64,000 nt of DNA, from contig JBAZXR010000001.1 of assembly GCA_041659765.1 (NCBI GenBank), positions 387,419 to 451,418 on the forward strand, read 5' to 3'. The DNA is from Patescibacteria group bacterium (GTDB lineage: Bacteria; Patescibacteriota; Patescibacteriia; UBA9934). The position numbers and the translations under genes are program-made. The notes under the pieces were generated by a model that did not search any database, was not told where the DNA came from, and was given only the letters and a program-made list of their open reading frames with translations. Positions 2,223 to 57,190 of the stretch are shown piece by piece (positions within the stretch are counted from its first letter, which is position 1; each line of letters opens with the position of its first letter).

Positions 2223-2918
2223 TTAACGCTTGCCAACCACAACCACGAACTCTCCCTTCATACTCGTCTCCTTCAGGGCTTTCAGTACCTCAACAGCTGT
2301 TCCACGATATATTGTCTCATGTAACTTGGTCAGCTCGCGGCAAACCACGAGGGGCTTAGGGCAAGAGCTGAGGGACTCGAGGGCTTTTTCGATCCGATGA
2401 GTTGCTTCGTAAAATACTTGTACGTGGTCAGCCTCAATGACTTCACGGAAGAAGGTCTCTCTCCCCTTCTTGTGTGGTGGGAAGCCAAGGAAAGTGAAAC
2501 GGTCGAGCGGGAATCCAGAAATCGATAGCGCGGCAATAATTGCACTCGCTCCGGGGATTGGCGTTACGGTAATTCCGTTCGCCACCGCGTCGGCCACGAG
2601 GAATCCACCAGGGTCTGAGATAGCCGGCGTTCCCGCATCTGTGACGAGCGCGATCTTCTTGCCCTCAAGGAGCATCTCGACTATGTGCTTGCGCTTGAGC
2701 GGGTCCGTGTGTTCGTGAAAACTCATCGTGCTCGGCGTAATCTTGAGATGCGCCAAGAGTCGGCTGGTGACTCGAGTGTCCTCGCACAACACAAGATCGA
2801 CAGAACCAAGGATCTCCTTCGCGCGCGCAGAAATATCACCGAGGTTACCAATCGGCGTGGCGACAATGAAGAGCCTGCCCTGAGCAGGGTCGAAGGGTTG
2901 GCCTTTAGAATCCGACAT
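2223..2918 (-). CDS. rsmI: 16S rRNA (cytidine1402-2'-O)-methyltransferase RsmI
   Basis: 231 aa with LFIVATPIGNLGDISARA...LVLCEDTRVTSRLL...LVTDAGTPAISDPG, the tetrapyrrole-methylase fold signature of RsmI. Confidence 0.8.
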   Translation of the reverse strand: MSDSKGQPFDPAQGRLFIVATPIGNLGDISARAKEILGSVDLVLCEDTRVTSRLLAHLKITPSTMSFHEHTDPLKRKHIVEMLLEGKKIALVTDAGTPAISDPGGFLVADAVANGITVTPIPGASAIIAALSISGFPLDRFTFLGFPPHKKGRETFFREVIEADHVQVFYEATHRIEKALESLSSCPKPLVVCRELTKLHETIYRGTAVEVLKALKETSMKGEFVVVVGKR

Positions 2919-4176
2919 TTATTTCAGTTGGCGCTGGCGTAGGCGCTGGTATGTTTGCCTGATCGAACATTTCATCGCCCAGGAGCTTGGCCGTTGGGAA
3001 ATGAGAAACATAAGCGAAAGCAAAGTAGCGGGCGCTCGGGAAAATCTCCGCCAGCTGTTTGCCTTTAAGCTTACCCTTAATGCAGAGTCCTTCCGGAGTC
3101 CAACGAGAATCTGTTTCTTTGTCCTTGGTCTCGCCATTTTCCTTAATAAAGGTCAAGGTCCGGTCACCAATAGTTCGGTTGAACAGATGAACTTGGTTGT
3201 GCTCGCTCACGAACGCCACGTAATCAGCCTGACCAAAACCTGCCTCGGCTGAAAAGTAGTTTGGCTCTTTAACGAATGACAAGAACTTGGCCGTTGCCCC
3301 CACGTGCGTCTCACCGAACTGAAAATCCTGCACCACATCTTTTGAACCTAGACGAGTATCGGTTTTGTTAACCGGGAAAAAAAGCGAGGTATTCTTTTCG
3401 TAGTTGCCGTAAGGATGACGGCGGTAGTCACGAACAAAACCAGTTTCCGTAGACAGAGCCTCCCCATTGGGATTGGCCTTCTTCCAGGCATCCCAGGTCA
3501 TAACAACGCTTGAGTAACGAGTGAGTGACGTGGCGTGATCATGACCAGCGACGAGCGCGCCTGAAGCCTGGTCCCACAAATTCGTAGTAGTTGAGTCGTA
3601 AAATACCGGACAGTTGTTATAAACTTGGCCGTTGTCGCCAAAGTTTCTAGTGACGCCGTCCTCAACTACGCGGTCATAGACCACCGCGCTGCCACACAAG
3701 GGCGAGTACGAAACGAGCAACTCCCTATTGCCGAACTTGTCATTCACTATCTGGTGCCAGCTTAAAATTTGAAAAGAGTAAAACCGGTGCTGACCGTCTA
3801 CTTCAACATCAAGACCTTCCACCGTGTCATCCAATACTTCATCCGCCGTAGCTACCGAGACATACACAGGAGCGTTCAGGGCCGGGATACCATCCTTCCC
3901 CATGCCGTTGTCATAAAGTTCATCCGGCGGCACAAAATAGTTAACCCCGTTCTTCATGACCGGCGTGGAGTACGTGCCGCCCGCCACATTCGGCCAGCGT
4001 CCGTCAGCCGGCATAATAGACAAACGCCAAGCACGTACCGAAACTAGAAGCACGAGGACAATCAAACCGACAATTAAGGGGAGAAATTTTTGCAGCTGTT
4101 TCTTCATAGGAATGCATACAGAGTAATGGGAACTGAGTAAAACGTAAAGTGGTAAAGTATTGAAGCCTGAAATCAC
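2905..4176 (-). CDS. DUF3179 domain protein with N-terminal membrane anchor
   Basis: GKDGIPALNAPVYV...SYSPLCGSAVVYDR...NLWDQASGALVAGHDHATSL...WDAWKKANPNGEAL matches the DUF3179 consensus. The likely true start is MKKQLQKFLPLIVG near 4104. Confidence 0.6.
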   Translation of the reverse strand: MISGFNTLPLYVLLSSHYSVCIPMKKQLQKFLPLIVGLIVLVLLVSVRAWRLSIMPADGRWPNVAGGTYSTPVMKNGVNYFVPPDELYDNGMGKDGIPALNAPVYVSVATADEVLDDTVEGLDVEVDGQHRFYSFQILSWHQIVNDKFGNRELLVSYSPLCGSAVVYDRVVEDGVTRNFGDNGQVYNNCPVFYDSTTTNLWDQASGALVAGHDHATSLTRYSSVVMTWDAWKKANPNGEALSTETGFVRDYRRHPYGNYEKNTSLFFPVNKTDTRLGSKDVVQDFQFGETHVGATAKFLSFVKEPNYFSAEAGFGQADYVAFVSEHNQVHLFNRTIGDRTLTFIKENGETKDKETDSRWTPEGLCIKGKLKGKQLAEIFPSARYFAFAYVSHFPTAKLLGDEMFDQANIPAPTPAPTEINVGF

Positions 4177-4225: not shown

Positions 4226-4750
4226 ATGATCTCCATCAACAAATCGGCTCCTAGTTTTGAAAATGTGACCTCGTATACAAAGGGCGAATTCACTAAAACA
4301 AGCCTCAAGGATTACCAAGGCGGCTGGCTTATCTTATTTTTCTACCCACGTGACTTCACTTTTATCTGCCCTACGGAAATTAAGGGCTTCCAGAAAATGG
4401 AGGCAGACTTTGCCAAACTCGGTGCAAAGGTGGTCGGCGCGTCCACGGACTCTGAGTGGAGCCATAAAAACTGGTTCGAGAAAGACTTGCCAGAAGTCAC
4501 CTATCCTATCCTGGCTGATACCACGCAACGCGTCTCCAGAGACTACGGTGTGCTGAACGAAGATGACGGCAGCGCTGACCGCGGGCTATTCATCATTGAT
4601 CCAGAAGGAATTGTGAAGTACGCAGTGATTTCTGCTGGCTCTGTAGGCCGCTCGGTTAAAGAAGTTCTGCGAGTACTCGAGGCACTTCAGTCCGGCGAGC
4701 TGTGTCCTGTAGAATGGGAACCTGGCGAGAAGACACTCGGAAAAGCATAA
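4226..4750 (+). CDS. peroxiredoxin (AhpC/TSA family, 2-Cys type)
   Basis: FTFICPTEI peroxidatic-Cys motif and a C-terminal resolving Cys (GELCPVEWEPGEKTL). Confidence 0.85.
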   Translation: MISINKSAPSFENVTSYTKGEFTKTSLKDYQGGWLILFFYPRDFTFICPTEIKGFQKMEADFAKLGAKVVGASTDSEWSHKNWFEKDLPEVTYPILADTTQRVSRDYGVLNEDDGSADRGLFIIDPEGIVKYAVISAGSVGRSVKEVLRVLEALQSGELCPVEWEPGEKTLGKA

Positions 4751-4765
4751 TTTAGCTAATACTGG

Positions 4766-4815
4766 CTATATAAACAGAGAAACGGCTTGACAATAGGCCG
4801 TTTTTTTGATATACT
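4766..4815 (+). promoter_or_regulatory. peroxiredoxin terminator hairpin overlapping a near-consensus sigma70 promoter (TTGACA-N17-TATACT)
   Basis: AACGGC-ttgacaatag-GCCGTTTTTTT hairpin at 4781-4807. TTGACA lies at 4787-4792 and TATACT at 4810-4815 with a 17-nt spacer. Confidence 0.6.
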
Positions 4816-4819
4816 AATT

Positions 4820-5425
4820 CTTGTCGAATGTGGCGGTACGTAGACCAAGAGGGGCCCTGCCTCAACTAGCGAACACGCACCACACGTTAGGCACCCAAGC
4901 CAGGACCGCGAACCCCACGACCCTAACCGGAATTGTGCCCTCTGAAATTATGGGGGTGTGCGGTAGGAGCAAGGTACGCTGTTGGGAACGGCGATCGGAA
5001 CCTGGTGATTCTCTGCCAGACCGAACCTCAGACAACGAGTTAATACCTCGGGTCAGAGGTCAGATGATGAGATAGCAACGGAGGGTTCAAAAGCGCGCAG
5101 TAATTCAAAAACGCGCAGGACCCAGTCCAACCGGTGCGAACCGTGCTGGCCGGCCAAACCGACCAACAAGGAAGAGGACTAGGAAGCCGATGGTGGACGA
5201 GAGGACGCTCTCGTTAGGAAGCATCAGGCAACCGAAATATAAAAAGGCCGTGGATCCACGCACAGGCCAACGCGCACAAAAAATTAAACGCGCGTCTTGA
5301 CTCGCTCGTTACGTCCTAGGGTGACTTTCCAAGTTCGCCACCGCTGAGCTCGCTCGGCGATGACGGCTCGTAACGATCGCTTGATCCCCCACTTGCAAAC
5401 GATGCAAGGAGGGGGATTTCGCTTT
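4820..5425 (+). ncRNA. ~600-nt non-coding transcript of unresolved class (weak RNase P RNA-like motifs)
   Basis: No ORF of 60 aa or more for ~700 nt. It is bracketed by a strong promoter (4787-4815) and an intrinsic terminator (5384-5428). Internal segments GAACCCCACGACC and GGTGTGCGGTAGGAGCAAGG resemble RNase P RNA conserved regions (GAAACCCACGACC; GGTGCGGTAAGAGC...GGAGCAAGG) in the right order, but no convincing P4 helix was found. Confidence 0.4.
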
Positions 5426-5428
5426 TTA
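5384..5428 (+). terminator. intrinsic terminator for the non-coding transcript
   Basis: CCCCCACTTGCAAACGATGCAAGGAGGGGGA stem followed by TTTCGCTTTTTATA. Confidence 0.6.
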
Positions 5429-5439
5429 TAGATACGAGA

Positions 5440-5518
5440 ATAAATAAAAATAGTGTTGACGAGAAATTGTTAGGAGGTAATCCGACTCCAATTTCGAGAC
5501 AACACTATTTTTATTTAT
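5440..5518. repeat. 19-bp perfect inverted repeat with a 41-nt spacer; probable bidirectional terminator overlapping the pepA stop
   Basis: ATAAATAAAAATAGTGTTG (5440-5458) and CAACACTATTTTTATTTAT (5500-5518) are exact reverse complements. The loop contains an AGGAGGT element. Confidence 0.55.
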
Positions 5519-7014
5519 TCGAGATTCTGAACGTACTTGACGAGCGTCCCGACTCCGAATCCTGTTCCGCCTTTTCCAACATACGTCGACAGTGGTCTCT
5601 CGGCAAAAGCGGGGCCGGCGATGTCTAAGTGAACCCACGGCGTGTTGTCCTCCACAAACTCGGCCAAGAACAAACCAGCTGTCAGAGCTCCCCCGTAACG
5701 CGAAGTTGAAATGTTACGTAGGTCCGCCACCTCAGACTTAACAAGTGAGGCGTAGCGCTCAAAGAGTGGGAGCTCCCAGGTGCGCTCCCCCGCCTCTTCA
5801 GATGCGTCCAGAACTTCTTTCATGAGCTTCTTGTCATTCCCCATAGCTCCGGCTACTTCCTCCCCCAGCGCAGCGACTACAGCACCAGTCAGCGTAGCGA
5901 GGTCGATCATCGCGTCCGGCTTCACTTCGCGCTGAATGTACGTCATCGCGTCAGCCAGCGTGAGGCGACCTTCTGCGTCCGTATTCAGTACCTCGATTGT
6001 TTTTCCGTTCATCGATTTAACGACGTCTCCAGGCTTAGTCGAGTGTCCGCTTGGCATGTTCTCAGTGGCAGCGATAACGCCGTGGATGTTTACGCGTGGT
6101 TTCAATCTGGAAAGCGTAGCAAAAAAACCAAGCACGGCCGCTGCTCCCGCCATATCGCACTTCATGGTCATCATGCCGTCAGCAGGCTTGAGTGAAAGGC
6201 CACCCGAATCGAACGTCACACCTTTCCCGACAACAGTTACAGTCTTCTTTGAGGGTCTCGGCGATTTGTAAATCAGATGAATAAACTTTGGCTCTTGCCC
6301 ACTGCCTTTTGCGACAGATAAGTAAGACCCCATCCCGAGCTTCTCACATTCTGCAGCCTCGAGAATTTTTACGTCGACCATCTCGTTTGAGGACTTGGCA
6401 ATTTCGATCGCTGCGTCTGCAAGGAGTGAAGGTGTCATATGTCCTCCCGGCGTGTTCACGAGGTCACGAGCTACAGTCAACCCGTCGCACAACGTCTCGG
6501 CGTGTTCCACTGCCTTCCGCATGGCCAGTAACTGCCCACGTTCTTCCGTCGCGACTACGAACAGGTCGAGATGTTTATTGCTCGCTTCCTTCTTATACGT
6601 GTCGAACGAGTAGTCGCTCAGAATCGCAGCCGTTGCTGCGGCCTCTGCAATGGCTGACTTCGACAACTCCTTAGGCAAAATCAAACCAACAGACTTCATG
6701 CCGTTTTTTCTGGCCATGCCTGTAGCCATCCCAACGGCTTCACGAATGGCCTGGAGATTTGATGACTTCTTCTCCCCCAACCCGATCACAAGAATTGCGT
6801 CCGCATTGCCACCAACCGGGAGTTGGAGCGAAACCGTCTCGTACAGCTTCCCCGCAAATCCTGTCCGCTCAACAGACACCATGAATCTATCGACAAGTTC
6901 CGCCGGAATCCCCTTCACGTTCTTAATGCTAAAAGTCTTCCCGCCAAACACCGGAATAACAATCAGGTTCGCCTGACATGTTCCCGCCGTAGCCTTGAGG
7001 ACGTTGATCTGCAT
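5515..7014 (-). CDS. pepA: leucyl aminopeptidase, M17 family
   Basis: NTDAEGRLTLADA M17 signature, VGKGVTFDSGG, 499 aa. Confidence 0.85.
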   Translation of the reverse strand: MQINVLKATAGTCQANLIVIPVFGGKTFSIKNVKGIPAELVDRFMVSVERTGFAGKLYETVSLQLPVGGNADAILVIGLGEKKSSNLQAIREAVGMATGMARKNGMKSVGLILPKELSKSAIAEAAATAAILSDYSFDTYKKEASNKHLDLFVVATEERGQLLAMRKAVEHAETLCDGLTVARDLVNTPGGHMTPSLLADAAIEIAKSSNEMVDVKILEAAECEKLGMGSYLSVAKGSGQEPKFIHLIYKSPRPSKKTVTVVGKGVTFDSGGLSLKPADGMMTMKCDMAGAAAVLGFFATLSRLKPRVNIHGVIAATENMPSGHSTKPGDVVKSMNGKTIEVLNTDAEGRLTLADAMTYIQREVKPDAMIDLATLTGAVVAALGEEVAGAMGNDKKLMKEVLDASEEAGERTWELPLFERYASLVKSEVADLRNISTSRYGGALTAGLFLAEFVEDNTPWVHLDIAGPAFAERPLSTYVGKGGTGFGVGTLVKYVQNLE

Positions 7015-7073
7015 ATAGTGTATTTTTCGCGCATTTTTGGAGATTAGTCAACCCTTGTGTCTCTCCTATCTTT

Positions 7074-7442
7074 ATGATAGTGTTTACGGTTACTTTGGAG
7101 GTCCCCATGCTCCCCTTTTCAGCGTTCGTGCTCTCTACGCTCATTGTGGTAACTGCCTTAATAGATTTCTTCCTGCCACGCTCCACCTGTTTCAGGGAGT
7201 ACGTCATTGCCATCCGGGTGGCACTCTTAGTTCTTTCCGTCTTTACCGTCGCCATAGGTGGTCTGACAAAGGAGCAGATATACTTCACCATATCCTACAG
7301 CGCCATTCTCGGCGGTAATCTGCTGAGCCTGGCAACCGGGATCTATAGCTGGGTGCAGCCCCACGAGAAGTCCGCGCCAAACGGAAGGAAGTCCGTACCA
7401 GACGGAAAAAATGTTTTCGAGCCTCCAGGCAGTGACTCGTGA
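7074..7442 (+). CDS. hypothetical small membrane protein
   Basis: 122 aa with three predicted TM helices and no recognisable family. Confidence 0.3.
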   Translation: MIVFTVTLEVPMLPFSAFVLSTLIVVTALIDFFLPRSTCFREYVIAIRVALLVLSVFTVAIGGLTKEQIYFTISYSAILGGNLLSLATGIYSWVQPHEKSAPNGRKSVPDGKNVFEPPGSDS

Positions 7443-7490
7443 GCCGGCAGAACCACGCTGCCGGCAATTATTTTTAAAATATGCTAAGGC

Positions 7491-7518
7491 TTGACGAAAA
7501 TTTGGGTTACTGTATAAT
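7491..7518 (+). promoter_or_regulatory. sigma70 promoter with extended -10 (TTGACG-N16-TGTATAAT)
   Basis: TTGACG at 7491-7496 and TG-TATAAT at 7511-7518, upstream of a small basic ORF. Confidence 0.5.
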
Positions 7519-7544
7519 CCCGGCCATATTATTGGGTCGATTTT

Positions 7545-7682
7545 ATGCCACAACGACAACACACATCCCGCAAGGACCAGAACGCTATGTTCGCTGTTAA
7601 GCGAAAGGAGGCTGAGTTCCGCCGCCGCAAGCAGAAGGCCCTCCGTCTTGGAAAGCTGGAAGCGAAAGCCAAAGCAAAGTAA
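7545..7682 (+). CDS. small highly basic protein (45 aa; alternative 31-aa start at 7587 has an AAGGA SD)
   Basis: MPQRQHTSRKDQNAMFAVKRKEAEFRRRKQKALRLGKLEAKAKAK. It has its own promoter and a downstream hairpin with T-run (7688-7726). It is below the ORF-track cutoff. Confidence 0.35.
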   Translation: MPQRQHTSRKDQNAMFAVKRKEAEFRRRKQKALRLGKLEAKAKAK

Positions 7683-7781
7683 AAATGAACCGCCTATAGA
7701 CGAAAGTCAGGGCGGTTTTACTTTTGTGCGTCTTTTCGCTAAGGTAACGCGAGTTCATTCAACCCGTACACGGAGGCAATC

Positions 7782-8279
7782 ATGGTTACGCTTCCGTACT
7801 TCACGGACGTCCATTTTGATCAGGTCATGCGCCAAGAACTGCAAATGACCAGACTGGCACTGGCCTCAGAACGAAACATCATCTTCCGAACCTTTCCCTG
7901 TCTCATGGGTAATGAGTCACGGCGCGTCCTCAGAGACAAACGCTACCGCTTTCTCTGCTGGTTCATAGCCATGTGCGAACACTGGAATACGTGCGTCACC
8001 CTATGTTCGGAACTTGATGACATGGTCCGAGCGGATCTACTAGCCGAGAACGAGGACATAATGGTGGTGGCTCACGCGGTGTTCCAGCTCGAGGCATTAA
8101 AGCAAGCAGTCAGTACGCAAATCACGCTGGCTGAGCATTTGACCAGCGAGTTCGGTCCGATGGGCACAGCTCCCGCGACAAAAGGACGCCACGTCCGGAC
8201 AACCCACGTCAAAGAGCTCGCCATGTCACTCGAGCGAACCGCCGCTCGACTCCGCAAATTGTATCCTCATGGACCGTAA
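7782..8279 (+). CDS. hypothetical protein
   Basis: 165-aa ORF with no family recognised. Confidence 0.3.
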   Translation: MVTLPYFTDVHFDQVMRQELQMTRLALASERNIIFRTFPCLMGNESRRVLRDKRYRFLCWFIAMCEHWNTCVTLCSELDDMVRADLLAENEDIMVVAHAVFQLEALKQAVSTQITLAEHLTSEFGPMGTAPATKGRHVRTTHVKELAMSLERTAARLRKLYPHGP

Positions 8280-8313
8280 TCCGCCTTCCCAGCGCATGGG
8301 TCTGGCGGATTTT

Positions 8314-15243: not shown

Positions 15244-16920
15244 CTAAAAATAGAACAACCTGGCCAACTTAATATCATCGTACGAGTACTTACGGTTCAG
15301 ATGTGTGAGTACCGGGCTCAGTTGCTGGGTTTTCAACTTTCGGAAAGCACCATGAATGTCAGCCAAAGCTTTCTCGTTCTTAAGGTGTTCCAGACCTGTC
15401 TTTGGCAAGCCGCCGAGCTCTTTCAATTTCTCGAGGTGCTCGATAATAGTTCCGGCCTTTCTCCCCCGCTCGGCCGCTACCTCGTCGATAGTTTTACCCT
15501 CGAGTAGAAGCGCGAGCGTTTGTTCGTAGCGCGGCTCCTTACTACGCTTAGTTGGCGTTAACGGGGCGGCGAGCATTTCAATGGGTGTGCGAGCAGTCAC
15601 CCGGCCTCCACAAGCGACAATAAAACCCTTTTGCTTGAGTTCGAGTTTTGACGCATCGGCGCTGCCATACTTCTCGCGCGCAATATCTGACTCCTCTCTA
15701 AACTGACCGTCTTGAACCAGGACATTCTGGTCGACCTCAAGCGCTCGTTCATTCAAACCGCCGAGGAACAAGCCGTCGAGGGTACGCACGCGCGACAGTG
15801 CAACATAACCTTGTCCGAAAGCAAACGCACCAGAAAGATCAACATACGCCGCGTCGAGCGACATCCCCTGACTCTTGTGTACGGTCATCGCCCAAGCTAG
15901 CCGAAGCGGGATTTGCGAAATCGCGGCGAGCGACCGCGACTCTCCCTCAATAGCCCAGCTGGCAGGCTTAGCCTCAATAGTTCTGCCTGACCGCGTCTTC
16001 ACGATCGGGAATCCCGTGTCTCTCGAAAATCCCTCTACCTCCCCCGTCGTACCGTTAACGTAACCATCGTCGAAGTTGTTGCGAGTGAACATAACTCGTG
16101 CGCCGACCTTCAAGTCGAGTCTCTCGGGCGACAAACAACCGCGTCGTAAAGCCTCGCACATTTTAGGATTTCCCATGTCTACCATCTTAAATGACTTCAC
16201 TTCGCCCGGGATCTTCGCGAGTTGCGCGGTGTTTATACGATCGACATCAGCATTGTGCGGGAACAGTTTCGTAATCTCCACGCCCGAGCCTACTGGCTGT
16301 TGGCGAGCGAGCAATCGCTCCCTATGTTCCTCGGGCACGCGCCCCGAACGCAAAGATGTCAGCACCTCCAAGAACGCCGGGTCTTCCTGGCGGTGTTGTT
16401 CGCTCAAATAGCAAATAATAGGCTTGGCGGAATGCCAGGCATCAGCCATGAATGAAAACTCAGCCGGTTCTTCGTCGTTCCGACTCACCGGTGGGAGCTG
16501 GAAGAAGTCACCAACGAAGATTACTTGCATTCCGCCAAACGGCGCGTGGTTCTCGCGGACTCCGCGCAGCACGGCGTCGACGAGCCCCAATATATTCGCG
16601 TCGAGCATGGACACCTCGTCAATAATCAAAACATGCATGTTGCGCATGCGCTTAGCCACTCGATCGTTCGTCCCGATCTCGCGAATGTCGTACTTACTGA
16701 GATCCTTCTTAATGCCGATCCCGCTCCACGAATGGATAGTCAACCCGCCAATATGGGTCGCCGCGATGCCGGTCGAAGCGGTAATGGCCGGTTCGACCCC
16801 GTGGGTACGCAAATAGTGCACATATTCGCGCACCGTATGGCTCTTGCCCGCGCCTGGCTCCCCCGTGAGGAAGACGTTGGCGCCCGTTTTCAGAATGGTC
16901 AAAGCTTCGGCTTGGGTCAT
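15244..16920 (-). CDS. PIF1/RecD-family ATP-dependent DNA helicase with C-terminal HTH
   Basis: Walker A LTGEPGAGKSHT, Walker B LIIDEVSMLD and helicase motifs (QLPPV; TVHKSQGMS). The C-terminal ~100 aa are HTH-like. Confidence 0.7.
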   Translation of the reverse strand: MTQAEALTILKTGANVFLTGEPGAGKSHTVREYVHYLRTHGVEPAITASTGIAATHIGGLTIHSWSGIGIKKDLSKYDIREIGTNDRVAKRMRNMHVLIIDEVSMLDANILGLVDAVLRGVRENHAPFGGMQVIFVGDFFQLPPVSRNDEEPAEFSFMADAWHSAKPIICYLSEQHRQEDPAFLEVLTSLRSGRVPEEHRERLLARQQPVGSGVEITKLFPHNADVDRINTAQLAKIPGEVKSFKMVDMGNPKMCEALRRGCLSPERLDLKVGARVMFTRNNFDDGYVNGTTGEVEGFSRDTGFPIVKTRSGRTIEAKPASWAIEGESRSLAAISQIPLRLAWAMTVHKSQGMSLDAAYVDLSGAFAFGQGYVALSRVRTLDGLFLGGLNERALEVDQNVLVQDGQFREESDIAREKYGSADASKLELKQKGFIVACGGRVTARTPIEMLAAPLTPTKRSKEPRYEQTLALLLEGKTIDEVAAERGRKAGTIIEHLEKLKELGGLPKTGLEHLKNEKALADIHGAFRKLKTQQLSPVLTHLNRKYSYDDIKLARLFYF

Positions 16921-27328: not shown

Positions 27329-30300
27329 TCAACGAGCCGAAGAGCGCCATCTGTCTAAGCAGGCTAATCCTTCACCAGGCAAAGAATCAGTGTAGCCGTC
27401 AATGCCCATTCCGTCACTTGGATACGTCACTGCTTTTCTTGCGGTAAGTGAATTGTAGTCACTCGCAGTAGAAATTTCCTTCCCAAGTGTGTACCCATCA
27501 AAATTAACGACGTCAATGATGGTTTTATTCCAATTCTTTCCGTAAAGAGCCGAGGCCAGTTCTTCGCTCACTATCCAACGGAGCACCGAGCCTTTTTCAA
27601 TCGCGTAGACTTTTGAATCTTCTGGCCGCTTGATCATGAGCACTCCCGGAGCAAAGGACACATCCGCGCCACGCCCAAGTTTACTGAAAAGCTCCTGGTC
27701 AACAATCGCAAGATCCCCGTAATCACAATACCAGGTGAAAAAAATGCGTTCTCTTGGAAAAGGATGAGCCAGTCCATCGGCACCGATGTAGTAGACCGCT
27801 TGGTTACCCTTGACCTTTAGCAGGGCATGCATCGGAATTCCCAGCTGTTTCAGACCTTCCAAACCTGGCTTGATCCCTTCTCCCGGTACAACATCAAACG
27901 ATTGCTCTTCAATTGAAATGGTGACCTGTGCATCGTCCTGTACAGGCAAACCTTTTGCTATTCCCGTAACTAGCCCCTTATTCGTGGTCGTTTCTGTAAT
28001 CATATCCATGCATGAATAAACCCAAATCTCATCCGGATCTAGCTTTCCATCATTATCAACGTCTCCTGATGCGTACGAAACTGGCTCACAATAATCATCG
28101 GTCACCTCAACATCTGTTATATGAACCGTGCCGGGGTTAGAAACCTTATAGGTAAAGGTGGCCTGTCCGCCGGTAGAGGGCAGGAACGTGGGGATAGCTG
28201 ACTTATCCAGAGAGATGCCAATACTTACTCCTAATTCCATAACTGGCACATACAATTCCGCCGTATCTGTTATTTGGCGGCCACTGTGTTCCGCGGTCAC
28301 GGTCGCGATATTGAACGTACTCTTATCAAGGACCGTAGAGCATGAATATTTCCAAACTTCGGCTAAGCCAAGGGTACCGTCACCGTCTGTATCTCCTCCG
28401 CTAAATGTCACCGGCCAACATGTGTCATCAGTCACCCGAATGTTATATAAAACAGTGTTCCCGCTGTTAAATACCTTATAGCCGTATATCACTGGCAGTC
28501 CCACAGAAGACAGCGTCGGAGGCACGGTGTCTTTTGTGAGCCGGATAGAGGCAATCTGAACATTCAGGAAACCGGCTTGTTGCGGAGAAGAGACGGAAAA
28601 AGGACTGACTGCCAACACATTGCTGTCATTATCAGCTGCGTCGCTGACCGTAATCGTGCAATTGTTATACGAACCGACGGTTAAGGTTGAAAAAGTAATG
28701 GTATTGTCACCTGCGGTTGCGTTCACAGTTACGCTCGTACAGCCACCGCCGTACGTAATCACGCCCGCTGAAGTGGAGTTAAATACGTATGACGGCGTAG
28801 TATCAATGGTGGGCGTATAAACAGGTGTAACTTCAAAGAGAAAAGGGGCGACGGTATCAATCTCAATATTTTTATTAGCTCCAAGCGAACCCGTAGCTCC
28901 AGGAATCGGTAAAGTGAGCAAAGCTGAATTACCGGCCTGATCTTCAATACTTCCACCATCATAGGTGAGTGCCGAAGAGTTCAGGTAGTCAAGGCGAGAC
29001 GCCGAGTCGCCTGAACTAACGGTGTAATTAAAAGTTAAAATGGAAGAATTAGAACCGCTCACATAGATGGCATGAGCATTGATCGAGCCGGTTTCAAGAG
29101 TGATTCTCGGCAAACCGGAAGCAATCACCACCTCATCAAAGGCGACTTGAATTGGAATAACCGCCCCTACACCGTAGATGCCATTGGCTACCGATGAAGT
29201 TACATTAATCACCAGCGGGATAGACGTGTTCACTGTAAACGGAGTGACCGCCAAGGCCACGTTTTCGTTACCTGCAGTATCTCTGACTTTAACAGTACAG
29301 TTATTGTGAAGGCCGTCTGCTAGGGTATTAAAAGTAATGAGATTTGACCCAGAAACAGCGGAGGTCATACCGCTCGAACAGTCACCACCAAAAATAATCG
29401 TACCCGCCTCACTAGAATTGAACGTATAGGCTGGCGTCGGATCATTCGTAAAGGTGTCAACGGGGGTGGTTTCTGACAACGTAGGTGTGATTGAATCAAT
29501 GAGGAGCGCCGAAGTTGCACTTAATGAACCAATTCCCCCGGGAGATGGCAAAACAAGGTCAGCGTTATTACCCGCTAGATCCATGATTGTCCCACCGCCA
29601 AGAGACAACGCTGACACGCTTGCGTAATCAAGATCCGATGCCAGCATATCCGCGCCAACAGTAAAGCGGAAAAGGAGTTCGTGATCACCGGAACCGCTGA
29701 CGTATGTAGCAACGGCCGCGACCGGCGCAGTGTTTAAGGTCAGTTCGGGCGTGTTGGTCACCACCACCGTCTCGCTCCAATGTACGAGCAAAGTAATTAC
29801 CGAACCGGCCGCATAGGCGCCATTCGCGGTCACACTAAACACATCATTCACAAACGGCGCCGTAGTATCAGCCGTCGTTGGCACGATAACTAAAGCCTTG
29901 TTCGCACCAAGTGATCCTGCAGCGCCTGGCGCTGGCAGCGTCAAAACAGCCGGATCAGCGGCGGCGTCTTTAATTGTGCCTCCATTCAAGGTTAGCGAAG
30001 TAGTAGCTAAATAATCTAGGTCTAAACTTGCATTTCCAGTCTGAACGTAATAATCGAAGGTTAGAGTGTCCGTACCATTTCCTGCTTCGTACAGGGCGTA
30101 CTCATCCGTGTCGCCCGTTTCAAGCTGGAGCCTGGGTCTATTTGTAACATACACCGTTTCGTTGAAGGTAATGGTAATCGGAATCGCGGCGCCTGGTGCA
30201 TATTCCCCATTGGGGCTAGATGAGGTGACATTCATAACAGACGGCGGGGTGGTATCTACCTCGAACGTAGAAACAACCAGCAAAGCACTCGGATTTCCTG

Positions 30301-32449
30301 CCGAATCCGTTACCGTAATACGACAATTGTCATGTACGCCGTCGGCCAAGGTGTTAAACGTGACCGTGGTGTTCCCCGCGTTGGCGGATGTATTAGCGCT
30401 TGAACAATCGCCCAAATATGAGATGGTGCCAGACTCAGTAGAGAAGAATGTGTAATCCGGCGTCACGTCAAGAGTTTCAACCGGAACCGGCGTCGTTTCC
30501 GAGAGCACGGGCGCATCAGTATCGACCGTAAAAGCACTGACCGCCAAGAGGTTGCTCTGGTTAGTCGCCGCGTCTGTTAGTCTAATCGTACAGTTGTTAT
30601 GCAAACCCTGTCCTAGGGAATTAAAGGTAATGGTATTAGTACCTACCACCGCATCACTAGTTGAACTTGCACAATCACCTGTATAAGCGATTGTGCCTAC
30701 TTCGTCCGAACTAAATGAATAATCAGGGGTGATGTCTGAAGTAGCTGTGGGCACCGGAGTCACTTCCGCGATAGTCGGCGCCGTCACATCAATAGTGAAG
30801 GCGGAGACAGCTAAAATCGCGCTAATGTTACCAGCCGTATCAGTAACTCGAATCGTGCAATTAGTGTGCGAACCGGCTCCGAGCGTATTAAACGAAATAG
30901 CGTTAGACCCGGCCACCGCGGTTGTAATGCTGCTCGAACAGTCTCCACCGTAGGCAATAGAACCAGCCTCGTTTGAAGTAAACGTATAAGCTGGCGTAGT
31001 GTCATTAGTTGGGCTAGATACCGGAACACTTTCTGTTAGAGTCGGCACCGCAGTATCTATCACCTGACTGGCAGCGTTCAGGAGGGCTCCGTCAGTTGGT
31101 CCGTCGTTAGTTGAGGCTACAAACACGCCAACATCGCCGTTTTGGCTGACTACCAAGTCCCCGCCAGCGTCTGAGTACACCGGTAGCAAAAAGGTTAAAA
31201 GAGAATTGTTGGTTGGCGTACCGGCAATGTCCGTTGTCACGTAAAGCCGCAAGCCTCCAGCTGGAATTGTGTCCGTCAGCGAGCCGAGGCGCCATTCTTG
31301 ATTATTGGTCGAGTTAACCGTCATGGTGCCGAGAACTACATCCTGAGCGTTCTGGAAACCGGCTGTAGTTCCATTCTCCTTCCACACTTTTACGGCAGCA
31401 ATATCCGTGGCGTTAACTGCTCCGCCGTTATTTCTGACGCCCAAGCCCCGCAATTGATCCGCCTGAATATCAAGTACACTATTTGGCGCAGCGCCGCCAG
31501 CCGTACCCTGATCCACCACGATACTCCGGGTTGAATCTATCGGCGACGAACCCGTGTACCCGCAACCCTGCGTACCTGCTCCAGCCCCATCACAGTCAGC
31601 GGCAAAGTTCACCAACGCGTTCCCAGCCACCAGACCGGCCAACGAATACACGTTATCGTCAGCAGTTGAAGAATAGGTTAGTTCGCCCGCAAAGTTTTCA
31701 ATAAAAATATCTTCACCGTTATCATAAGCAGCATCACCGTCACCACCCATGGCCACGGAAGTAGCGAAAGCCCAAGCATTGGTGACTTCAGTAGCGGCGG
31801 CTGTAGCAGAAGTACCTAAAATGTAAGTGCCGTTGTCACTCCCGGCGTTGCCACAGTTACCGTCCGTATCAATCCTAACAGCCGTTGGAGCCGTCAGACT
31901 GTTCGTGCAAACAGCCCGCCCTCCCTGAGCGATGTTATTGCCCATGGCCACCAGAGCCCCGCCAATATCAATTGAGGCGCTGACCGTGCCAATGCCGGTC
32001 GTAGTAGAACCATCGCCGTCCACTAGCGTATCAGCGGCGGAGGTGTAGACACTGTCCGCATCGAGATCACGCACAACCTGTTCGGTTCCCTGGAACCCGC
32101 CCGTACCATCCTCTTTATAACCAACACCGTTCACCGAGCCAAGGGCTGTAAAAATAGACAAAACGTTCCCTTGAAAGAACGTAGCCGAGCCAGCCTTCTT
32201 TACAATATCCGCGGTGTACGCCGTTCCGTTCCACGCGTCAGGTATCCCAACATCGAGCACCAAAATATTCGTCGCGTTGGCCTTGGCTCTGGCCGCCGGG
32301 GCGCCGTTATTTGTGTAATGCGTCAGCAGTGCTGCGACCGCTATTTCCGTTCTGTGAAGTCTTGAGCTTAGAACGAGCGCGATCGTCGAACCGCCAATCA
32401 ACGTCACAGCCAGAAGCATTACTGCACGGGTCTGTTTATGCATAAACAT
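27329..32449 (-). CDS. giant (1706 aa) membrane-anchored cell-surface protein with tandem Ig-like repeats and C-terminal DUF11-like domains
   Basis: N-terminal signal anchor. There are at least 7 copies of a ~95-aa unit (TP.YTF.S.E.G.I.Y.GDCSS.......G.N.ITFNTL..G.H.NCTI.VTD.AGN.S..LAVS.FT.D) alternating with a second ~120-aa unit. The C-terminus has DUF11-like LTKDTVPPT...VTDDTCWP and VSNPGTVHITDVEVTDDYCEP. Confidence 0.6.
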   Translation of the reverse strand: MFMHKQTRAVMLLAVTLIGGSTIALVLSSRLHRTEIAVAALLTHYTNNGAPAARAKANATNILVLDVGIPDAWNGTAYTADIVKKAGSATFFQGNVLSIFTALGSVNGVGYKEDGTGGFQGTEQVVRDLDADSVYTSAADTLVDGDGSTTTGIGTVSASIDIGGALVAMGNNIAQGGRAVCTNSLTAPTAVRIDTDGNCGNAGSDNGTYILGTSATAAATEVTNAWAFATSVAMGGDGDAAYDNGEDIFIENFAGELTYSSTADDNVYSLAGLVAGNALVNFAADCDGAGAGTQGCGYTGSSPIDSTRSIVVDQGTAGGAAPNSVLDIQADQLRGLGVRNNGGAVNATDIAAVKVWKENGTTAGFQNAQDVVLGTMTVNSTNNQEWRLGSLTDTIPAGGLRLYVTTDIAGTPTNNSLLTFLLPVYSDAGGDLVVSQNGDVGVFVASTNDGPTDGALLNAASQVIDTAVPTLTESVPVSSPTNDTTPAYTFTSNEAGSIAYGGDCSSSITTAVAGSNAISFNTLGAGSHTNCTIRVTDTAGNISAILAVSAFTIDVTAPTIAEVTPVPTATSDITPDYSFSSDEVGTIAYTGDCASSTSDAVVGTNTITFNSLGQGLHNNCTIRLTDAATNQSNLLAVSAFTVDTDAPVLSETTPVPVETLDVTPDYTFFSTESGTISYLGDCSSANTSANAGNTTVTFNTLADGVHDNCRITVTDSAGNPSALLVVSTFEVDTTPPSVMNVTSSSPNGEYAPGAAIPITITFNETVYVTNRPRLQLETGDTDEYALYEAGNGTDTLTFDYYVQTGNASLDLDYLATTSLTLNGGTIKDAAADPAVLTLPAPGAAGSLGANKALVIVPTTADTTAPFVNDVFSVTANGAYAAGSVITLLVHWSETVVVTNTPELTLNTAPVAAVATYVSGSGDHELLFRFTVGADMLASDLDYASVSALSLGGGTIMDLAGNNADLVLPSPGGIGSLSATSALLIDSITPTLSETTPVDTFTNDPTPAYTFNSSEAGTIIFGGDCSSGMTSAVSGSNLITFNTLADGLHNNCTVKVRDTAGNENVALAVTPFTVNTSIPLVINVTSSVANGIYGVGAVIPIQVAFDEVVIASGLPRITLETGSINAHAIYVSGSNSSILTFNYTVSSGDSASRLDYLNSSALTYDGGSIEDQAGNSALLTLPIPGATGSLGANKNIEIDTVAPFLFEVTPVYTPTIDTTPSYVFNSTSAGVITYGGGCTSVTVNATAGDNTITFSTLTVGSYNNCTITVSDAADNDSNVLAVSPFSVSSPQQAGFLNVQIASIRLTKDTVPPTLSSVGLPVIYGYKVFNSGNTVLYNIRVTDDTCWPVTFSGGDTDGDGTLGLAEVWKYSCSTVLDKSTFNIATVTAEHSGRQITDTAELYVPVMELGVSIGISLDKSAIPTFLPSTGGQATFTYKVSNPGTVHITDVEVTDDYCEPVSYASGDVDNDGKLDPDEIWVYSCMDMITETTTNKGLVTGIAKGLPVQDDAQVTISIEEQSFDVVPGEGIKPGLEGLKQLGIPMHALLKVKGNQAVYYIGADGLAHPFPRERIFFTWYCDYGDLAIVDQELFSKLGRGADVSFAPGVLMIKRPEDSKVYAIEKGSVLRWIVSEELASALYGKNWNKTIIDVVNFDGYTLGKEISTASDYNSLTARKAVTYPSDGMGIDGYTDSLPGEGLACLDRWRSSAR
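28500..31100. repeat. in-frame tandem coding repeats within the giant surface protein gene
   Basis: Repeated nucleotide and peptide units are visible across ~2.6 kb. Confidence 0.6.
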
Positions 32450-39169: not shown

Positions 39170-39961
39170 TTAGTAGCTCGTCTCGCACTTGGCGAAATCG
39201 AGATCGCTAGTAGAATAGGTATCGTGTTCCCAGTTCTTCAGCACGGCTACGAGCTTTGAGACATCGTTTGATGTACACGTTCGCGTCACCTCAACGGAAC
39301 CCGCGATCATTGATTCGACATATCGTTGCATCATTTCTACTGCTGCGGCTCTCGCGATCTCCTGAGGAGTCTTCCCTGCGGCCACCTGCGCTTCATATGC
39401 ACCGCGCTCTTCAGGCGTCAGGGTATTCAGTTCTTCTTCTGTCAAAGGAAGTGCGCCGGCAATTTGCTCCTGAACGGCGTTAGGAACAACCCCGCTCGCA
39501 ACGAGTTTATCAAACCAGTCCGCGCCGAAAACAACTTTCATACCAGTCGTCTCTGTAGCGAACGTATACGACTTTCCGTCGCTCGACATACGGAAATCCA
39601 TCGTCGACGCATGCCACATGCTGACGCCAGGCATGAGCTGTCTGAGGCCTTCTCCCCAAAAGTGCGCATTTTTCTTTGCAGAAACTGCATTATAGAAACA
39701 CGGAACATTGTGGTCGCAATTCACCACATTGGGAACAGCGATCGGAGTAAGGAGGGGCACGGCTTTTTCCGGTTCGATTGCCGTCTCTTCTTTTTCAACT
39801 TCCGTTGCCTCCACCGGAGCTTCAGCTTCGACAGACACCTCAGCGACAGGCATCGAGACTTCAGTTTGAGCTTCAGAACGAGGCTGCAGAGCAAAGGCCA
39901 CCCCTCCCCCAATCAGGGAAAGCCCCAAAACCGCAAGCAGGATAGACAGTTTAGTATTCAT
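39170..39961 (-). CDS. secreted hypothetical protein
   Basis: Signal peptide and an E/A/V-rich linker, with no family recognised. Confidence 0.35.
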   Translation of the reverse strand: MNTKLSILLAVLGLSLIGGGVAFALQPRSEAQTEVSMPVAEVSVEAEAPVEATEVEKEETAIEPEKAVPLLTPIAVPNVVNCDHNVPCFYNAVSAKKNAHFWGEGLRQLMPGVSMWHASTMDFRMSSDGKSYTFATETTGMKVVFGADWFDKLVASGVVPNAVQEQIAGALPLTEEELNTLTPEERGAYEAQVAAGKTPQEIARAAAVEMMQRYVESMIAGSVEVTRTCTSNDVSKLVAVLKNWEHDTYSTSDLDFAKCETSY

Positions 39962-47916: not shown

Positions 47917-49899
47917 TCAAACTAAATTAACACTTGCTTCAGTGACGATTTCTTCAGGAGAAGCGAAGTCCTTGGCTATCAAATTTTGATCGATTTGTAA
48001 TTTGTCTTGGATAAACTGATGTCTGAGTTTTGCGGCGGTCAAAACCTCGCTCCATGTTCGAACGTAAATTTTATAGTTTCCTTTATTGAAAACTAAGCCC
48101 TTATTTTTCTCGCCATGATTTTTATTATTTTCAATCTCATCTTCTATATAACTATCCATGCGGTTGCCCACAAGAATAAATTCCCAATGCATATTTGAGG
48201 CATTGAAATCAGCAACCGACAAAATTACACTCATGTATTTTTTGACCTGAGATAACTCTTCCTCACCCAAGATTACAGATGGTCTCTTTAATTCAACGAC
48301 AATATTTTCAATTGTACTTATTGTTTTATTTTGCCTGCACAAGAAAAGATCCATTTCCTTATTTTTGTCCCTATGCTTAATAGAAATCGTTTCTATCTCC
48401 CCACCAAGATGCTCATGATAATTAGCGAGTGCTTTTTCAAATTTTTGTTCGGTGGATGCTAATAGATGGTATTGCTCTCCAAAAATCCAATAATTTAGAT
48501 CAAGAAATTTTTGGAGATGATCACGTTCGTTTGCATTAAAAGAAGTTTTGAAAACTAAATCATTCAACTGATCAAGAGCAATGAAACGCTCTTTGATCAA
48601 ACGCGTGGCATGAATAATATTTGATAGATGCGTCACCTTAAGTAACTCGCACAATTCATCAATATCTTCTGAATCCAATTCAAGTACAGCCTTGAGAATC
48701 TCAAATATCTTTTCTTTCTCTCCCGATTCCAACAATACATTTAATAGTCCAACCAACGTCTTCTTCTCCTCGATGGAAGAAGTGGAGAAAATCTTTGGTT
48801 GAACTTGATACAGTCCTTTGATTACTTCTTCAAGCTCATTCTTTTTAACAAGATCCCATTGGTCTGTACCAAATTTCGGAATAATCCCTTTGCTCTCATA
48901 TTCCTCAATCAACTGTTTCGCGTAGTTAGCCAAAAATGGCTTACGTTTTTTTCTTAAAAACTGAGTTAATTCTTTTTCTAAAAACTTAAATTCTGCGTCA
49001 GATTTAGAGTGACCGAAAAGAGTGCGATCTTCTTCCCCAGAACCGCCCTCGGCATTAAACTCATCGAAATAATCGCTCTTAATGTAGACGCTATGATAAA
49101 AGCTATCGCCTTTGTTATTTAATTTTGTTGTCTCTTTCCAGATCTCATCATCTTTTGAATTAACAAGGTAATAGCGGGAATACTCGTCGTGAAGTTGCCT
49201 ACTCCAACGAACAAAATTAATTTCAAACTCTGTATTTGATGCAGGATAAATAAATTTTGTTGAAGCTTGCTCTCCAATTATTGAAGCGTAGTCGAGTGGC
49301 TTGCCGTTGATAAGAACGGCGAATCCTCGTTTTTTGTTTAATTCCAAAAACCAGCCGAATTCAGCTTTTAAATATGCTTCTACCTTATCCTGAAACATCG
49401 TAAACGTGAGGGAGTTTACAGAGTCGAAGGTAACGGTAGTCCCAGTATTTTTTTCAGCAGACTTCTTAGGGGTCGAAGAGTTGGTCTCGTAGTGGTTTAA
49501 CTTTTGAGATTCGATGGTGATGTCGTATTCAAATACCTCGTCTTTGTTTTTAAATCTTGTAGTCCATACAGCCCTCTCTGAAAAAGTAAAAAAGGTAAGG
49601 CGACCAATCCCGTTTCTTCCGTGCGTTAAGGACTTGTTCCTGGAAGGACTTTTAGCCATTTTTTCGGATTGAAAAAACGGTCTAAATTTTTGATCAAGAA
49701 GGCTTTTATCGATACCGCTTCCATTGTCGGAAATACTCAGGCTTCGAATCCCACCAAGACCCTCCACGTCCACATCTATTCTGACATCCGTTGCGCCAGC
49801 ATCGAAGCCATTCCAAATAAATTCAGCAAAAGCTTCTTCGGCGGTGTATTTACGTAAGATTTGCTTTATCCCTCTTTCGTTCACTTCAATGATTGCCAT
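47917..49899 (-). CDS. GHKL-superfamily (MutL/MORC-like HATPase_c) ATPase with C-terminal PD-(D/E)xK-like region
   Basis: Bergerat-fold motifs are present in order: N-box EFIWNGFDAGA (ExxxNxxDA), G1 ISDNGSGI (DxGxG), G2 GRNGIGRL (GxxGxG) and G3 NTGTTVTF. The C-terminal MDLFL...IVVELKRP fits a D...ExK nuclease core. The region is AT-rich. Confidence 0.6.
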   Translation of the reverse strand: MAIIEVNERGIKQILRKYTAEEAFAEFIWNGFDAGATDVRIDVDVEGLGGIRSLSISDNGSGIDKSLLDQKFRPFFQSEKMAKSPSRNKSLTHGRNGIGRLTFFTFSERAVWTTRFKNKDEVFEYDITIESQKLNHYETNSSTPKKSAEKNTGTTVTFDSVNSLTFTMFQDKVEAYLKAEFGWFLELNKKRGFAVLINGKPLDYASIIGEQASTKFIYPASNTEFEINFVRWSRQLHDEYSRYYLVNSKDDEIWKETTKLNNKGDSFYHSVYIKSDYFDEFNAEGGSGEEDRTLFGHSKSDAEFKFLEKELTQFLRKKRKPFLANYAKQLIEEYESKGIIPKFGTDQWDLVKKNELEEVIKGLYQVQPKIFSTSSIEEKKTLVGLLNVLLESGEKEKIFEILKAVLELDSEDIDELCELLKVTHLSNIIHATRLIKERFIALDQLNDLVFKTSFNANERDHLQKFLDLNYWIFGEQYHLLASTEQKFEKALANYHEHLGGEIETISIKHRDKNKEMDLFLCRQNKTISTIENIVVELKRPSVILGEEELSQVKKYMSVILSVADFNASNMHWEFILVGNRMDSYIEDEIENNKNHGEKNKGLVFNKGNYKIYVRTWSEVLTAAKLRHQFIQDKLQIDQNLIAKDFASPEEIVTEASVNLV

Positions 49900-50358: not shown

Positions 50359-50361
50359 TGG

Positions 50362-50433
50362 CTCGGGGGGTGGGGCTCGAACCCACGACCCAAGGATTAA
50401 CAGTCCTTTGCTCTGCCACTGAGCTACCCCCGA
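50362..50433 (-). tRNA. tRNA-Asn (anticodon GTT), CCA encoded (to 50359)
   Basis: Minus-strand sequence TCGGGGGTAGCTCAGTGGCAGAGCAAAGGACTGTTAATCCTTGGGTCGTGGGTTCGAGCCCCACCCCCCGAGCCA. It has a 7-bp acceptor stem, GCTC/GAGC D-stem, anticodon loop CTGTTAA and T-loop TTCGAGC. Confidence 0.85.
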
Positions 50434-53853: not shown

Positions 53854-53936
53854 ACGGCCATCAGATTAGCATAAAAAAAGAGCGGGCGCCCATGGACCGT
53901 GAAGTCCAAGGGCACCCGCGTGAGAGAGCTGACTGC

Positions 53937-56513: not shown

Positions 56514-56708
56514 CTCTACCTCCTGGCTGGTTAGCCGTTACACTGTCTTCTCGAACTCACACACTAATGAAAGAAGTCCCCAAATGCGTTCGATGGAACA
56601 TTTGAGGAACGGGTGACCTTATAGAATTTACTGACTATTGTCAAAAGATTCGGCTTCGATCAGCGAAAAATGCACACAAGGCGTTGATTAGTGGCTATTA
56701 TTAGCAAA

Positions 56709-56745
56709 AAAAAGACGGCCCATACCCTAAGGCTGGTGCCGTTTT
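56709..56745 (-). terminator. intrinsic terminator of the small Cys-rich paralog
   Basis: On the minus strand: ACGGCACCAGCCTTAGGGTATGGGCCGT followed by CTTTTTTTTGC. Confidence 0.45.
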
Positions 56746-56764
56746 GTTCGATGAGAAGCTGATA

Positions 56765-57190
56765 TCAACGATTCGCGTCCTGACCGTCGCAATCCTGATC
56801 GTGGCCGTCGACCGAGAGGTCAGGGGCTCCAGGATACGTATCGCTTCGAGCGTCATCGCAATCACCGGAGACCACGACGAAACCCGGAGGGGCCACGTTC
56901 GTCTTCGTCATCCGCCACCGCGCTGCACTCCCGTACCTATCGCTGTCACCGTCGCGGTACCAGGTAAACGTACCCGGGCCGCACATGTCATCCTCGTCTA
57001 CGAGTCCGTCGCAGTCGTTGTCGATCCCATCACATGACTCGACGATAGTCTTGCAAACAACCGGCTGATCACGCGTGGTGACGGACTGCTTGAATTGCCC
57101 AATTCGGATCCCGATCGCGGTAAGGAGGAGGCACAGCGAGAGCACAAGGACGATTGCCCCACACCGACCACGCGATTCGAACATATTCAT
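56765..57190 (-). CDS. small secreted Cys/Asp-rich repeat protein, paralog of the C-terminal repeats of the 858-aa protein
   Basis: Signal peptide; CDGIDNDCDGLVDEDD and GDCDDARSDTYPGAPDLSVDGHDQDCDGQD are near-identical to units in the 858-aa protein. Confidence 0.5.
   Translation of the reverse strand: MNMFESRGRCGAIVLVLSLCLLLTAIGIRIGQFKQSVTTRDQPVVCKTIVESCDGIDNDCDGLVDEDDMCGPGTFTWYRDGDSDRYGSAARWRMTKTNVAPPGFVVVSGDCDDARSDTYPGAPDLSVDGHDQDCDGQDANR

Follow-up and report, generated by a model that had tools for sequence, protein, structure and literature searches.

Within a 64-kb window of a patescibacterial genome (the whole stretch of DNA analyzed here, 64,000 nt; contig JBAZXR010000001.1, positions 387,419–451,418), the spacer between the convergent genes for peroxiredoxin (Prx; 4226–4750, + strand) and leucyl aminopeptidase (PepA; 5515–7014, − strand) harbors a unit of ~600 nt with its own promoter and terminator. 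Comparison with the same locus in related genomes indicates that this unit is a recent, lineage-specific insertion, which is the most informative fact about it and had been missed by the initial annotation, made from the sequence alone. That annotation had described a self-contained promoter-to-terminator unit, apparently non-coding and of no described class, and in this respect it is borne out by covariance-model searches and coding tests, which were negative throughout. Tentatively, and with the scales not quite tipping in its favor, we read the unit as an insulated, independent gene that was acquired recently and specifies an orphan non-coding RNA (ncRNA) of ~605 nt outside the described families.

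The insertion was delineated by alignment to the empty sites of four related loci (L002, L003, L004, and L005). It comprises ~675 bp at ~4756–5431 on the + strand, with boundaries of ±25 nt, and lies between the Prx stop codon and an ancestral bidirectional terminator, called T0 in the following. We compared this locus in relatives whose PepA proteins are 91, 89, 84, 73, 72, 70, and 61% identical to that of the window. In the relatives with at least 61% PepA identity (L002, L003, L004, L005/L006, L008, L010, L012, and the P0008 contig), the Prx–PepA spacer measures 0–155 nt, compared to 765 nt in the window, where no other non-coding gap in the entire 64 kb is as large. The convergent PepA/Prx pair and the neighboring genes DUF3179, TP_methylase, and MetRS are kept in all of these relatives. 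In L002 and L004, T0 directly follows the Prx stop codon, just where the window has ~675 extra bases. Because these two loci carry T0 at this position, a left-end terminator (T1), the promoter, a body of ~600 nt, and the terminator of the unit (T2) must have arrived jointly, on this genome's own terminal branch. Both junctions are reproduced at 100% identity in an independent Logan assembly (L001), so the insertion is not an assembly artifact of the metagenome-assembled genome (MAG). The closest matches to the PepA of the window among the GTDB representatives are Uhrbacteria-like MAGs; the source genome belongs to the Patescibacteria (Candidate Phyla Radiation, CPR), near Candidatus Uhrbacteria.

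More distant Uhrbacteria also possess longer PepA–Prx spacers, of 300–550 nt (L014, L035, L039, L041–L046, L050, L051, L056–L061, L064, L067, and L068). These encode a glutaredoxin-like protein (YSTPTCPYCK...GQMGVPV), a 2Fe-2S thioredoxin-like ferredoxin, or both, and together with Prx these genes form a small redox gene cluster that was lost in the clade of the window. We rejected these spacers as counterparts of the element, since their redox genes are unrelated to it.

At its left end, the unit has the promoter that had been proposed for it, a σ70-type element with a TTGACA −35 box (4787–4792), a 17-nt spacer, and a TATACT −10 box (4810–4815), all on the + strand. It agrees with the consensus at 11 of 12 positions and carries a TG extension at 4807–4808, one base ahead of the −10 box. 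Four sites matching the consensus at 11 or more positions exist in the 64 kb, compared to 0.78 expected from shuffled sequence. The TG extension is found in just one of the four, the promoter of the unit; the optimal 17-nt spacing is also present in the site at 57303. The same promoter consensus is used by other genes in the window. The −35 box is placed in the apex of the terminator hairpin T1, which terminates Prx and consists of an A-tract, a 15-bp hairpin, and a T-tract (4775–4808, + strand; −18 kcal/mol, z −7.4). Folding stability is given here and below as z relative to shuffled sequence. According to the empty-site alignment, T1 is lacking in the relatives; it is a new Prx terminator that came with the insertion.

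The strong intrinsic terminator noted earlier at the 3′ end was also found. This terminator, T2 (5383–5427, + strand), has a bulged stem at 5383–5418 (−22.4 kcal/mol, z −5.2) with UUUCGCUUUUU behind it; owing to the bulge, a simple consensus scan missed it. The promoter and T2 are co-oriented and lie at opposite ends of the insert. T2 immediately precedes T0 (5438–5520; −37.2 kcal/mol, z −10.6), the ancestral terminator common to Prx and PepA, an inverted repeat with 32-nt arms that is kept in L002 and L004 and, being outside the insertion, shows where the original spacer lay. All three hairpins (T1, T2, and T0) carry U-tracts and are highly significant. The unit is followed by nothing on the + strand for which it could serve as a leader, as had been stated before: PepA is convergent, with T0 in between. 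From this promoter and terminator geometry, we predict a primary transcript of ~605 nt (4822–5427, + strand), with its start placed 6–7 nt past the −10 box.

In the window generally, most genes have no Shine–Dalgarno sequence, and in about one gene of three a −10-like hexamer stands 6–12 nt before the start codon (e.g., the gene starts at 4226 and 57343 and those of the genes at 15244–16920, 39170–39961, and 47917–49899, the last three on the − strand). These two features suggest leaderless mRNAs or mRNAs with very short leaders in this organism.

Taken together, the following course of events may be proposed. About 675 bp of foreign DNA would have entered the short Prx–PepA spacer just upstream of T0. 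The insert would have supplied T1, which would now end Prx transcription and shield the new promoter, and in addition a near-consensus promoter of the host type, its −35 box in the T1 apex, and a strong terminator of its own, T2. The host RNA polymerase would then produce a discrete, insulated + strand RNA from ~4822 to ~5427, which may be stable and may have a function.

A clean pattern of filled and empty sites is also consistent with a non-autonomous mobile element, MITE-like or derived from IS200/IS605, which would be mobilized in trans and whose end hairpins and outward signals would serve transposition or insulation and not belong to an RNA gene. The size of the insert, near that of IS200, and the terminator hairpin at its left end, as in IS200, fit this explanation, and a 14-nt inverted repeat of 86% identity is found near the ends (4769–4782 and 5417–5430). 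This “terminal” repeat is only of low complexity, however, because its arms are the T1 A-tract and the T2 U-tract, and the two end hairpins are mutually unrelated in sequence. The unit is flanked by a weak, imperfect direct repeat (TATAAACAGAGAA / TATAGATACGAGAA), but the empty-site alignments are marginal in this respect (p about 0.04), and neither junction showed a convincing target-site duplication in them. Furthermore, the element is present as a single copy in the window and is absent from 1.39 Mb of DNA of its relatives, and a remnant of a Y1 or other transposase was not detected in it. We therefore regard a mobile element of this kind as improbable.

The possibility that the unit encodes a protein was assessed by codon usage, with the 27 long genes of the window as reference. 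The codon log-odds of the element are negative in every frame, ranging from −0.10 to −0.71, compared to a mean of +0.37 and a minimum of +0.06 for 85-codon windows of real genes. The initial annotation had found no open reading frame (ORF) of 60 aa or more; this needs correction, since an ORF of 84 aa starting with TTG is located at 4821–5075 on the + strand, though it is non-coding in appearance (log-odds −0.10; no homolog and no Pfam or PHROG match). None of the ten ORFs of the region was present in a collection of ~15 billion predicted proteins, searched by exact look-up and including the annotation of this very genome. A chimeric query of 880 aa, made up of every open stretch in six frames and run against 5.8 billion proteins, had no match at E ≤ 1, and Pfam and PHROGs returned nothing significant for any six-frame stretch of the element. 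With codon usage, look-up, chimeric query, and both domain collections all negative, we discarded the idea of a pseudogene or a hidden protein gene. A type I toxin–antitoxin system was dropped as well, because no ORF on the + strand is hydrophobic; the sole partly hydrophobic ORF (5105–5263, − strand) has no promoter-like site upstream. The unit is apparently non-coding.

Three short ORFs on the + strand could still give the transcript a coding role, as the mRNA of a micro-protein: the 84-aa TTG ORF, an ORF of 13 codons (MWRYVDQEGPCLN; 4828–4869), and a basic ORF of 36 aa (5190–5300). The ATG at 4828 lies 12 nt past the −10 box, the usual distance between −10 box and start codon in this genome, as in the short-leader genes of the window, and an AGGAAG motif stands 4 nt upstream of the ORF at 5190. 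One + strand frame is open across 4818–5297 save for a single stop codon. The scarcity of stops in this frame is explained by composition, because the + strand of the predicted transcript is poor in T (A.27, C.27, G.29, T.17); the same strand is rich in A, with an AT skew that reaches 0.34. The codon log-odds of all three candidates are negative (−0.46 for the 13-codon ORF, −0.17 for the 36-aa ORF, and the above value for the TTG ORF), none of the three has a homolog or a Pfam or PHROG match, and over 500 nt of the RNA would stay untranslated. We consider this explanation a degree more improbable still than the mobile element.

The unit fits no described RNA family either. Searching the window with cmscan and the 4227 families of Rfam 15 at the gathering score, we obtained only a tRNA-Asn, located elsewhere in the window. 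Searches of 4600–5600, 4822–5100, and 5060–5430 with a maximum E-value of 10 gave no meaningful family match, just noise in the form of (plant) microRNA models on the T0 hairpin and an archaeal C/D-box model with E about 1–3. This covers the classes named for checking in the initial annotation (RNaseP_bact_a/b, tmRNA, OLE, ROOL, GOLLD, and HEARO), so that the region is not an ordinary rnpB gene; covariance models of raiA and the Rfam CsrB and Rsm models gave no match in the region either. That no tmRNA is encoded here, as had been noted, was also the result of ARAGORN, which reported just the tRNA-Asn at 50359–50433. Class C group II introns, including ORF-less ones, insert beside terminators. 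A group IIC intron on the − strand was dropped as a candidate, since neither strand matched Intron_gpII or group-II-D1D4 at E ≤ 10; no separate search was made for the 5′ GUGYG motif.

The initial annotation had also raised the idea of a divergent RNase P RNA, based on two short strings, and these strings are present at 4910–4922 and 4955–4974. Within them, AACCCCACGACC (4911–4922) and GUGCGGUAGGAGC (4958–4970) resemble, in the same order, conserved regions in the specificity domain of the Escherichia coli M1 RNA. By a rough count, such matches are near the chance expectation for sequences of this size, and the segment that bears them shows no excess folding stability. The strands of helix P4 are universal in RNase P RNA. 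A search for them (GAGGAAAGUCCGGGC and ACAGAAnnCGGCUUA, allowing up to 3 mismatches) found no match inside 4822–5428, and their counts across the window were at chance level. RNase P models did not match at E ≤ 10 even on pieces of 279–371 nt. The orthologous spacer has no such unit in any of the relatives examined, which does not fit an RNase P identity, since the gene for an essential RNA would be expected to persist there in close kin. The likeness to M1 RNA and another one to 23S rRNA are at chance level for sequences of these lengths, and the Rfam large subunit rRNA and RNase P models lend them no support. A highly divergent housekeeping RNA, such as an RNase P RNA with insertions, is effectively refuted.

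In search of relatives of the unit, we used blastn with a word size of 11 and found no homolog among 50,697 phage and 72,556 plasmid records. Degenerate translated-seed scans of IMG/VR (24 seeds), the GTDB species representatives (6 seeds), and the JGI metagenome contigs (10 seeds) gave no homolog either; such scans require ~16–18 exact bases, so that homologs below ~85% identity would escape them, and the source genome lies outside the collections scanned. A consensus of the twin hairpins described below matched IMG/VR in 57 single instances, about the number expected by chance, none of them homologous. We also built sequence-only models of both halves and a structure model of 5086–5300. Neither these nor nhmmer detected anything in 1.2–1.4 Mb of DNA around PepA (±10 kb in 80 related genomes). 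The only two weak matches were treated as chance: the one in L069 falls within a coding region, and the one in L083 within actinobacterial DNA rich in GC. In total, the unit occurs once in the 64-kb window and in none of the 145 compared loci.

In one related MAG (L067), an ORF-free gap of ~660 nt lies beside a tRNA gene (2891–3551). It has no Rfam match at the gathering score and no similarity to the element.

For the RNA itself, folding predictions gave an uneven picture. Over its whole length (4822–5428), z is −2.3 on the + strand and −3.2 on the − strand. The first 264 nt (4822–5085) fold no better than shuffled sequence (+0.6 on both strands), followed by a middle part (5086–5300) with z −3.0 on the + strand and −4.2 on the − strand, and a 3′ domain (5296–5382) with −1.4 and −2.1. 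The label of a large structured RNA, offered as one option in the initial annotation, goes too far: excess stability is confined to 5086–5300 and is seen there on both strands. Because the − strand is as stable, RNA structure and DNA palindromes are inseparable from one sequence. One element of the middle part, the hairpin CCGGUGCG-AAC-CGUGCUGG predicted at 5131–5149, is specific to the + strand because it contains three G-U pairs.

On the + strand, the middle part begins with a predicted hairpin (HA; 5093–5116) with a GCGCG stem and a 14-nt A-rich loop (CAGUAAUUCAAAAA), embedded in an 18-nt tandem repeat (TTCAAAAGCGCGCAG / TTCAAAAACGCGCAG). Downstream of the G-U-containing hairpin follows an AGGA-rich segment (5165–5222) with an 8-bp hairpin at 5196–5215 and copies of UAGGAAGC at 5180 and 5215. 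The next hairpin, of the form GGCCGUG...CAC.GGCC (5246–5268; −11.1 kcal/mol, z −2.9), includes the palindrome CGTGGATCCACG. Next to it lies hairpin HB (5270–5295), predicted to be a near-twin of HA, with an ACGCGC stem and a 14-nt A-rich loop (ACAAAAAAUUAAAC). Both HA and HB have all-GC stems of 5–6 bp, and both loops contain AAUU. The 3′ domain may form a three-way junction at 5303–5379, closed by CGCUCGUUACG / CGUAACGAUCG, with a weak signal (z −1.5). Compared to expectation, AGGA (8 occurrences versus 2.9), AGGAAG (3 versus 0.24), and AACGCGC (3 versus 0.12) are enriched.

HA and HB derive from two pairs of CGCGC blocks, four blocks in all, with a spacing of exactly 18 nt within each pair. 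The same blocks can alternatively form two long-range helices around 5117–5270, an arrangement seen in the centroid structure as opposed to the minimum free energy structure. The two folds are mutually exclusive, either the HA and HB hairpins or the long-range helices with facing 14-nt A-rich strands. This could constitute a switch, or it could be the mere result of self-complementary repeats. In principle, the self-complementary AAUU in the loops of HA and HB could mediate loop–loop contacts. The likely business end of the RNA would be the hairpin-rich part at 5086–5382, with its twin GC-clamped hairpins and the AGGA-rich single-stranded linkers around a central hairpin. Its layout suggests protein binding or titration, or pairing in trans, rather than catalysis.

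Several of these results weigh against a stand-alone ncRNA gene. Nearly half of the RNA, its 5′ part, lacks folding beyond that of shuffles, the middle part is at least equally stable on the opposite strand, and the motif enrichments are modest after allowing for multiple testing. No homolog was found in any collection searched, so that neither covariation nor a sign of selection is available. Members of a functional RNA class should also turn up in kin, and none was found in the 1.39 Mb of Uhrbacteria-like DNA.

Being an orphan of a single lineage, and having a 5′ half without excess structure, the unit might instead be a relic of foreign or mobile DNA, without function, that entered a tolerant convergent spacer by illegitimate recombination or natural transformation. 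Its signals would then be leftovers, and its RNA, if any, would be idle. The neighborhood is variable in any case, as the other flank of PepA differs among close relatives too, and the GC content of the insert (~0.56) is slightly above that of the window (0.51). A random fragment is unlikely, on the other hand, to combine a terminator, an 11/12 promoter with extended −10 box, and a co-oriented terminator that together span the entire insert. Moreover, a decayed protein gene was not detected in any frame, and a gene-dense genome of 0.9 Mb would be expected to purge useless DNA, whereas the unit occupies the largest non-coding gap of the window. On balance, such a remnant is the most serious rival, but we consider it less likely than a gene for an orphan ncRNA, which we prefer with the reservation made at the outset.

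One may go further and propose a new class of large ncRNA genes (~600 nt) in Patescibacteria that move horizontally and insulate themselves, with the unit as the first member to be seen; its twin GC-clamped hairpins, with their A-rich AAUU loops, and the AGGA-rich linkers would then serve as a module for protein binding or self-association. This extension is quite unlikely to hold. Our literature searches turned up no large ncRNA described from CPR bacteria. Their genomes are tiny and gene-dense, and the regulatory and structural RNAs in them are almost unstudied. If the unit is expressed and functional, it would mean that such organisms gain ready-made, insulated ncRNA genes horizontally, and it would provide a concrete 600-nt RNA for further study. 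If it is a decaying fragment, it would be an example of foreign DNA settling in the spacer of convergent genes with the neighbors left undisturbed. With one orphan example without comparative support, the wider value is limited for now.

Looking at the other side of PepA, the region at 7015–8313 likewise differs among close relatives. It contains three small ORFs on the + strand, none of them with a Pfam match: a membrane-like one of 122 aa (7074–7442), a strongly basic one of 45 aa (7545–7682), preceded by an 11/12 promoter (7491) and followed by a terminator hairpin (~7688–7729), and one of 165 aa (7782–8279). The corresponding position holds a single ORF in L002 (30 aa) and in L004 (218 aa), and four in L003. 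Many public records that cover the PepA/Prx/DUF3179 neighborhood (L011, which equals L002, as well as L017, L018, L021, L022, and others) are titled “uncultured Gammaproteobacteria bacterium”. This assignment is probably wrong, because the nearest PepA relatives are MAGs of Uhrbacteria/Patescibacteria.

Two further loci of the window are rich in repeats. The stretch at 53892–57000 contains a large gene with repeat units of ~210 nt (repeat families D1–D12), and its coding strand is ambiguous from ORFs alone because long ORFs are open on both strands (53892–56534, +, 880 aa, versus 53937–56513, −, 858 aa). An ORF of 1706 aa at 27329–32449 (− strand) has internal repeats with a period of ~267 nt (family D5) and probably encodes a giant surface or repeat protein.

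Among the known systems, IS200 and the non-autonomous derivatives of IS200/IS605 elements share several traits with the unit. IS200 is ~0.7 kb long, carries at its left end a terminator-like hairpin that blocks read-in transcription, and has neither true terminal inverted repeats nor a clear target duplication. The unit is similar in its length of ~0.7 kb, in the terminator-like hairpin at its left end, and in the lack of true terminal inverted repeats and of a clear target duplication. It differs in having no ORF or remnant of a Y1 transposase, in the unrelated end hairpins, and in the lack of a detected second copy. Neither a Y1 (HUH) transposase nor TnpB was found, as judged from Pfam and PHROG searches in six frames and from protein homologs at E ≤ 1.

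With rnpB, the unit has in common two motifs of 12–13 nt in the same order. In contrast to rnpB, it is longer, has neither a model match nor P4, is not conserved at its locus, and does not fold stably in the relevant segment. CsrB and RsmZ are resembled in the cluster of AGGA/GGA motifs among or beside short hairpins (5117–5222) and in the terminator hairpin at the 3′ end. Unlike in these RNAs, the enrichment of the motif is modest (the 8 versus 2.9 given above), and most GGA motifs lie in linkers and not in hairpin loops. A search by tblastn found no CsrA in the window or in the compared loci, and neither an Hfq nor a CsrA gene was seen in the same DNA, which leaves the idea of a CsrA sponge unsupported.

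OLE, ROOL, GOLLD, and raiA are large, ornate bacterial RNAs that were defined by many homologs with covariation (PMC5737381, PMC12286853). With ~600 nt, the unit matches the size class of OLE and ROOL, and like these RNAs it is non-coding and maybe tied to mobile DNA. It differs in lacking a covariance-model match and homologs, in that half of the RNA shows no excess of predicted structure, and in its surroundings, where ARAGORN and inspection of the neighborhood revealed neither a tRNA gene nor a prophage.

The last comparison concerns the strain-specific small RNA (sRNA) and ncRNA genes encoded on genomic islands, which are independent units from promoter to terminator within intergenic DNA gained by horizontal transfer. 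At ~605 nt, the unit is several times longer than a typical trans-acting sRNA, and target complementarity to it was not found in the window. Yet it shares with these genes a σ70-type promoter and an intrinsic terminator of its own, a location in a convergent spacer, absence from close relatives, and the non-coding character. We rate it as a single example of a putative orphan intergenic ncRNA unit, a kind that is already known.

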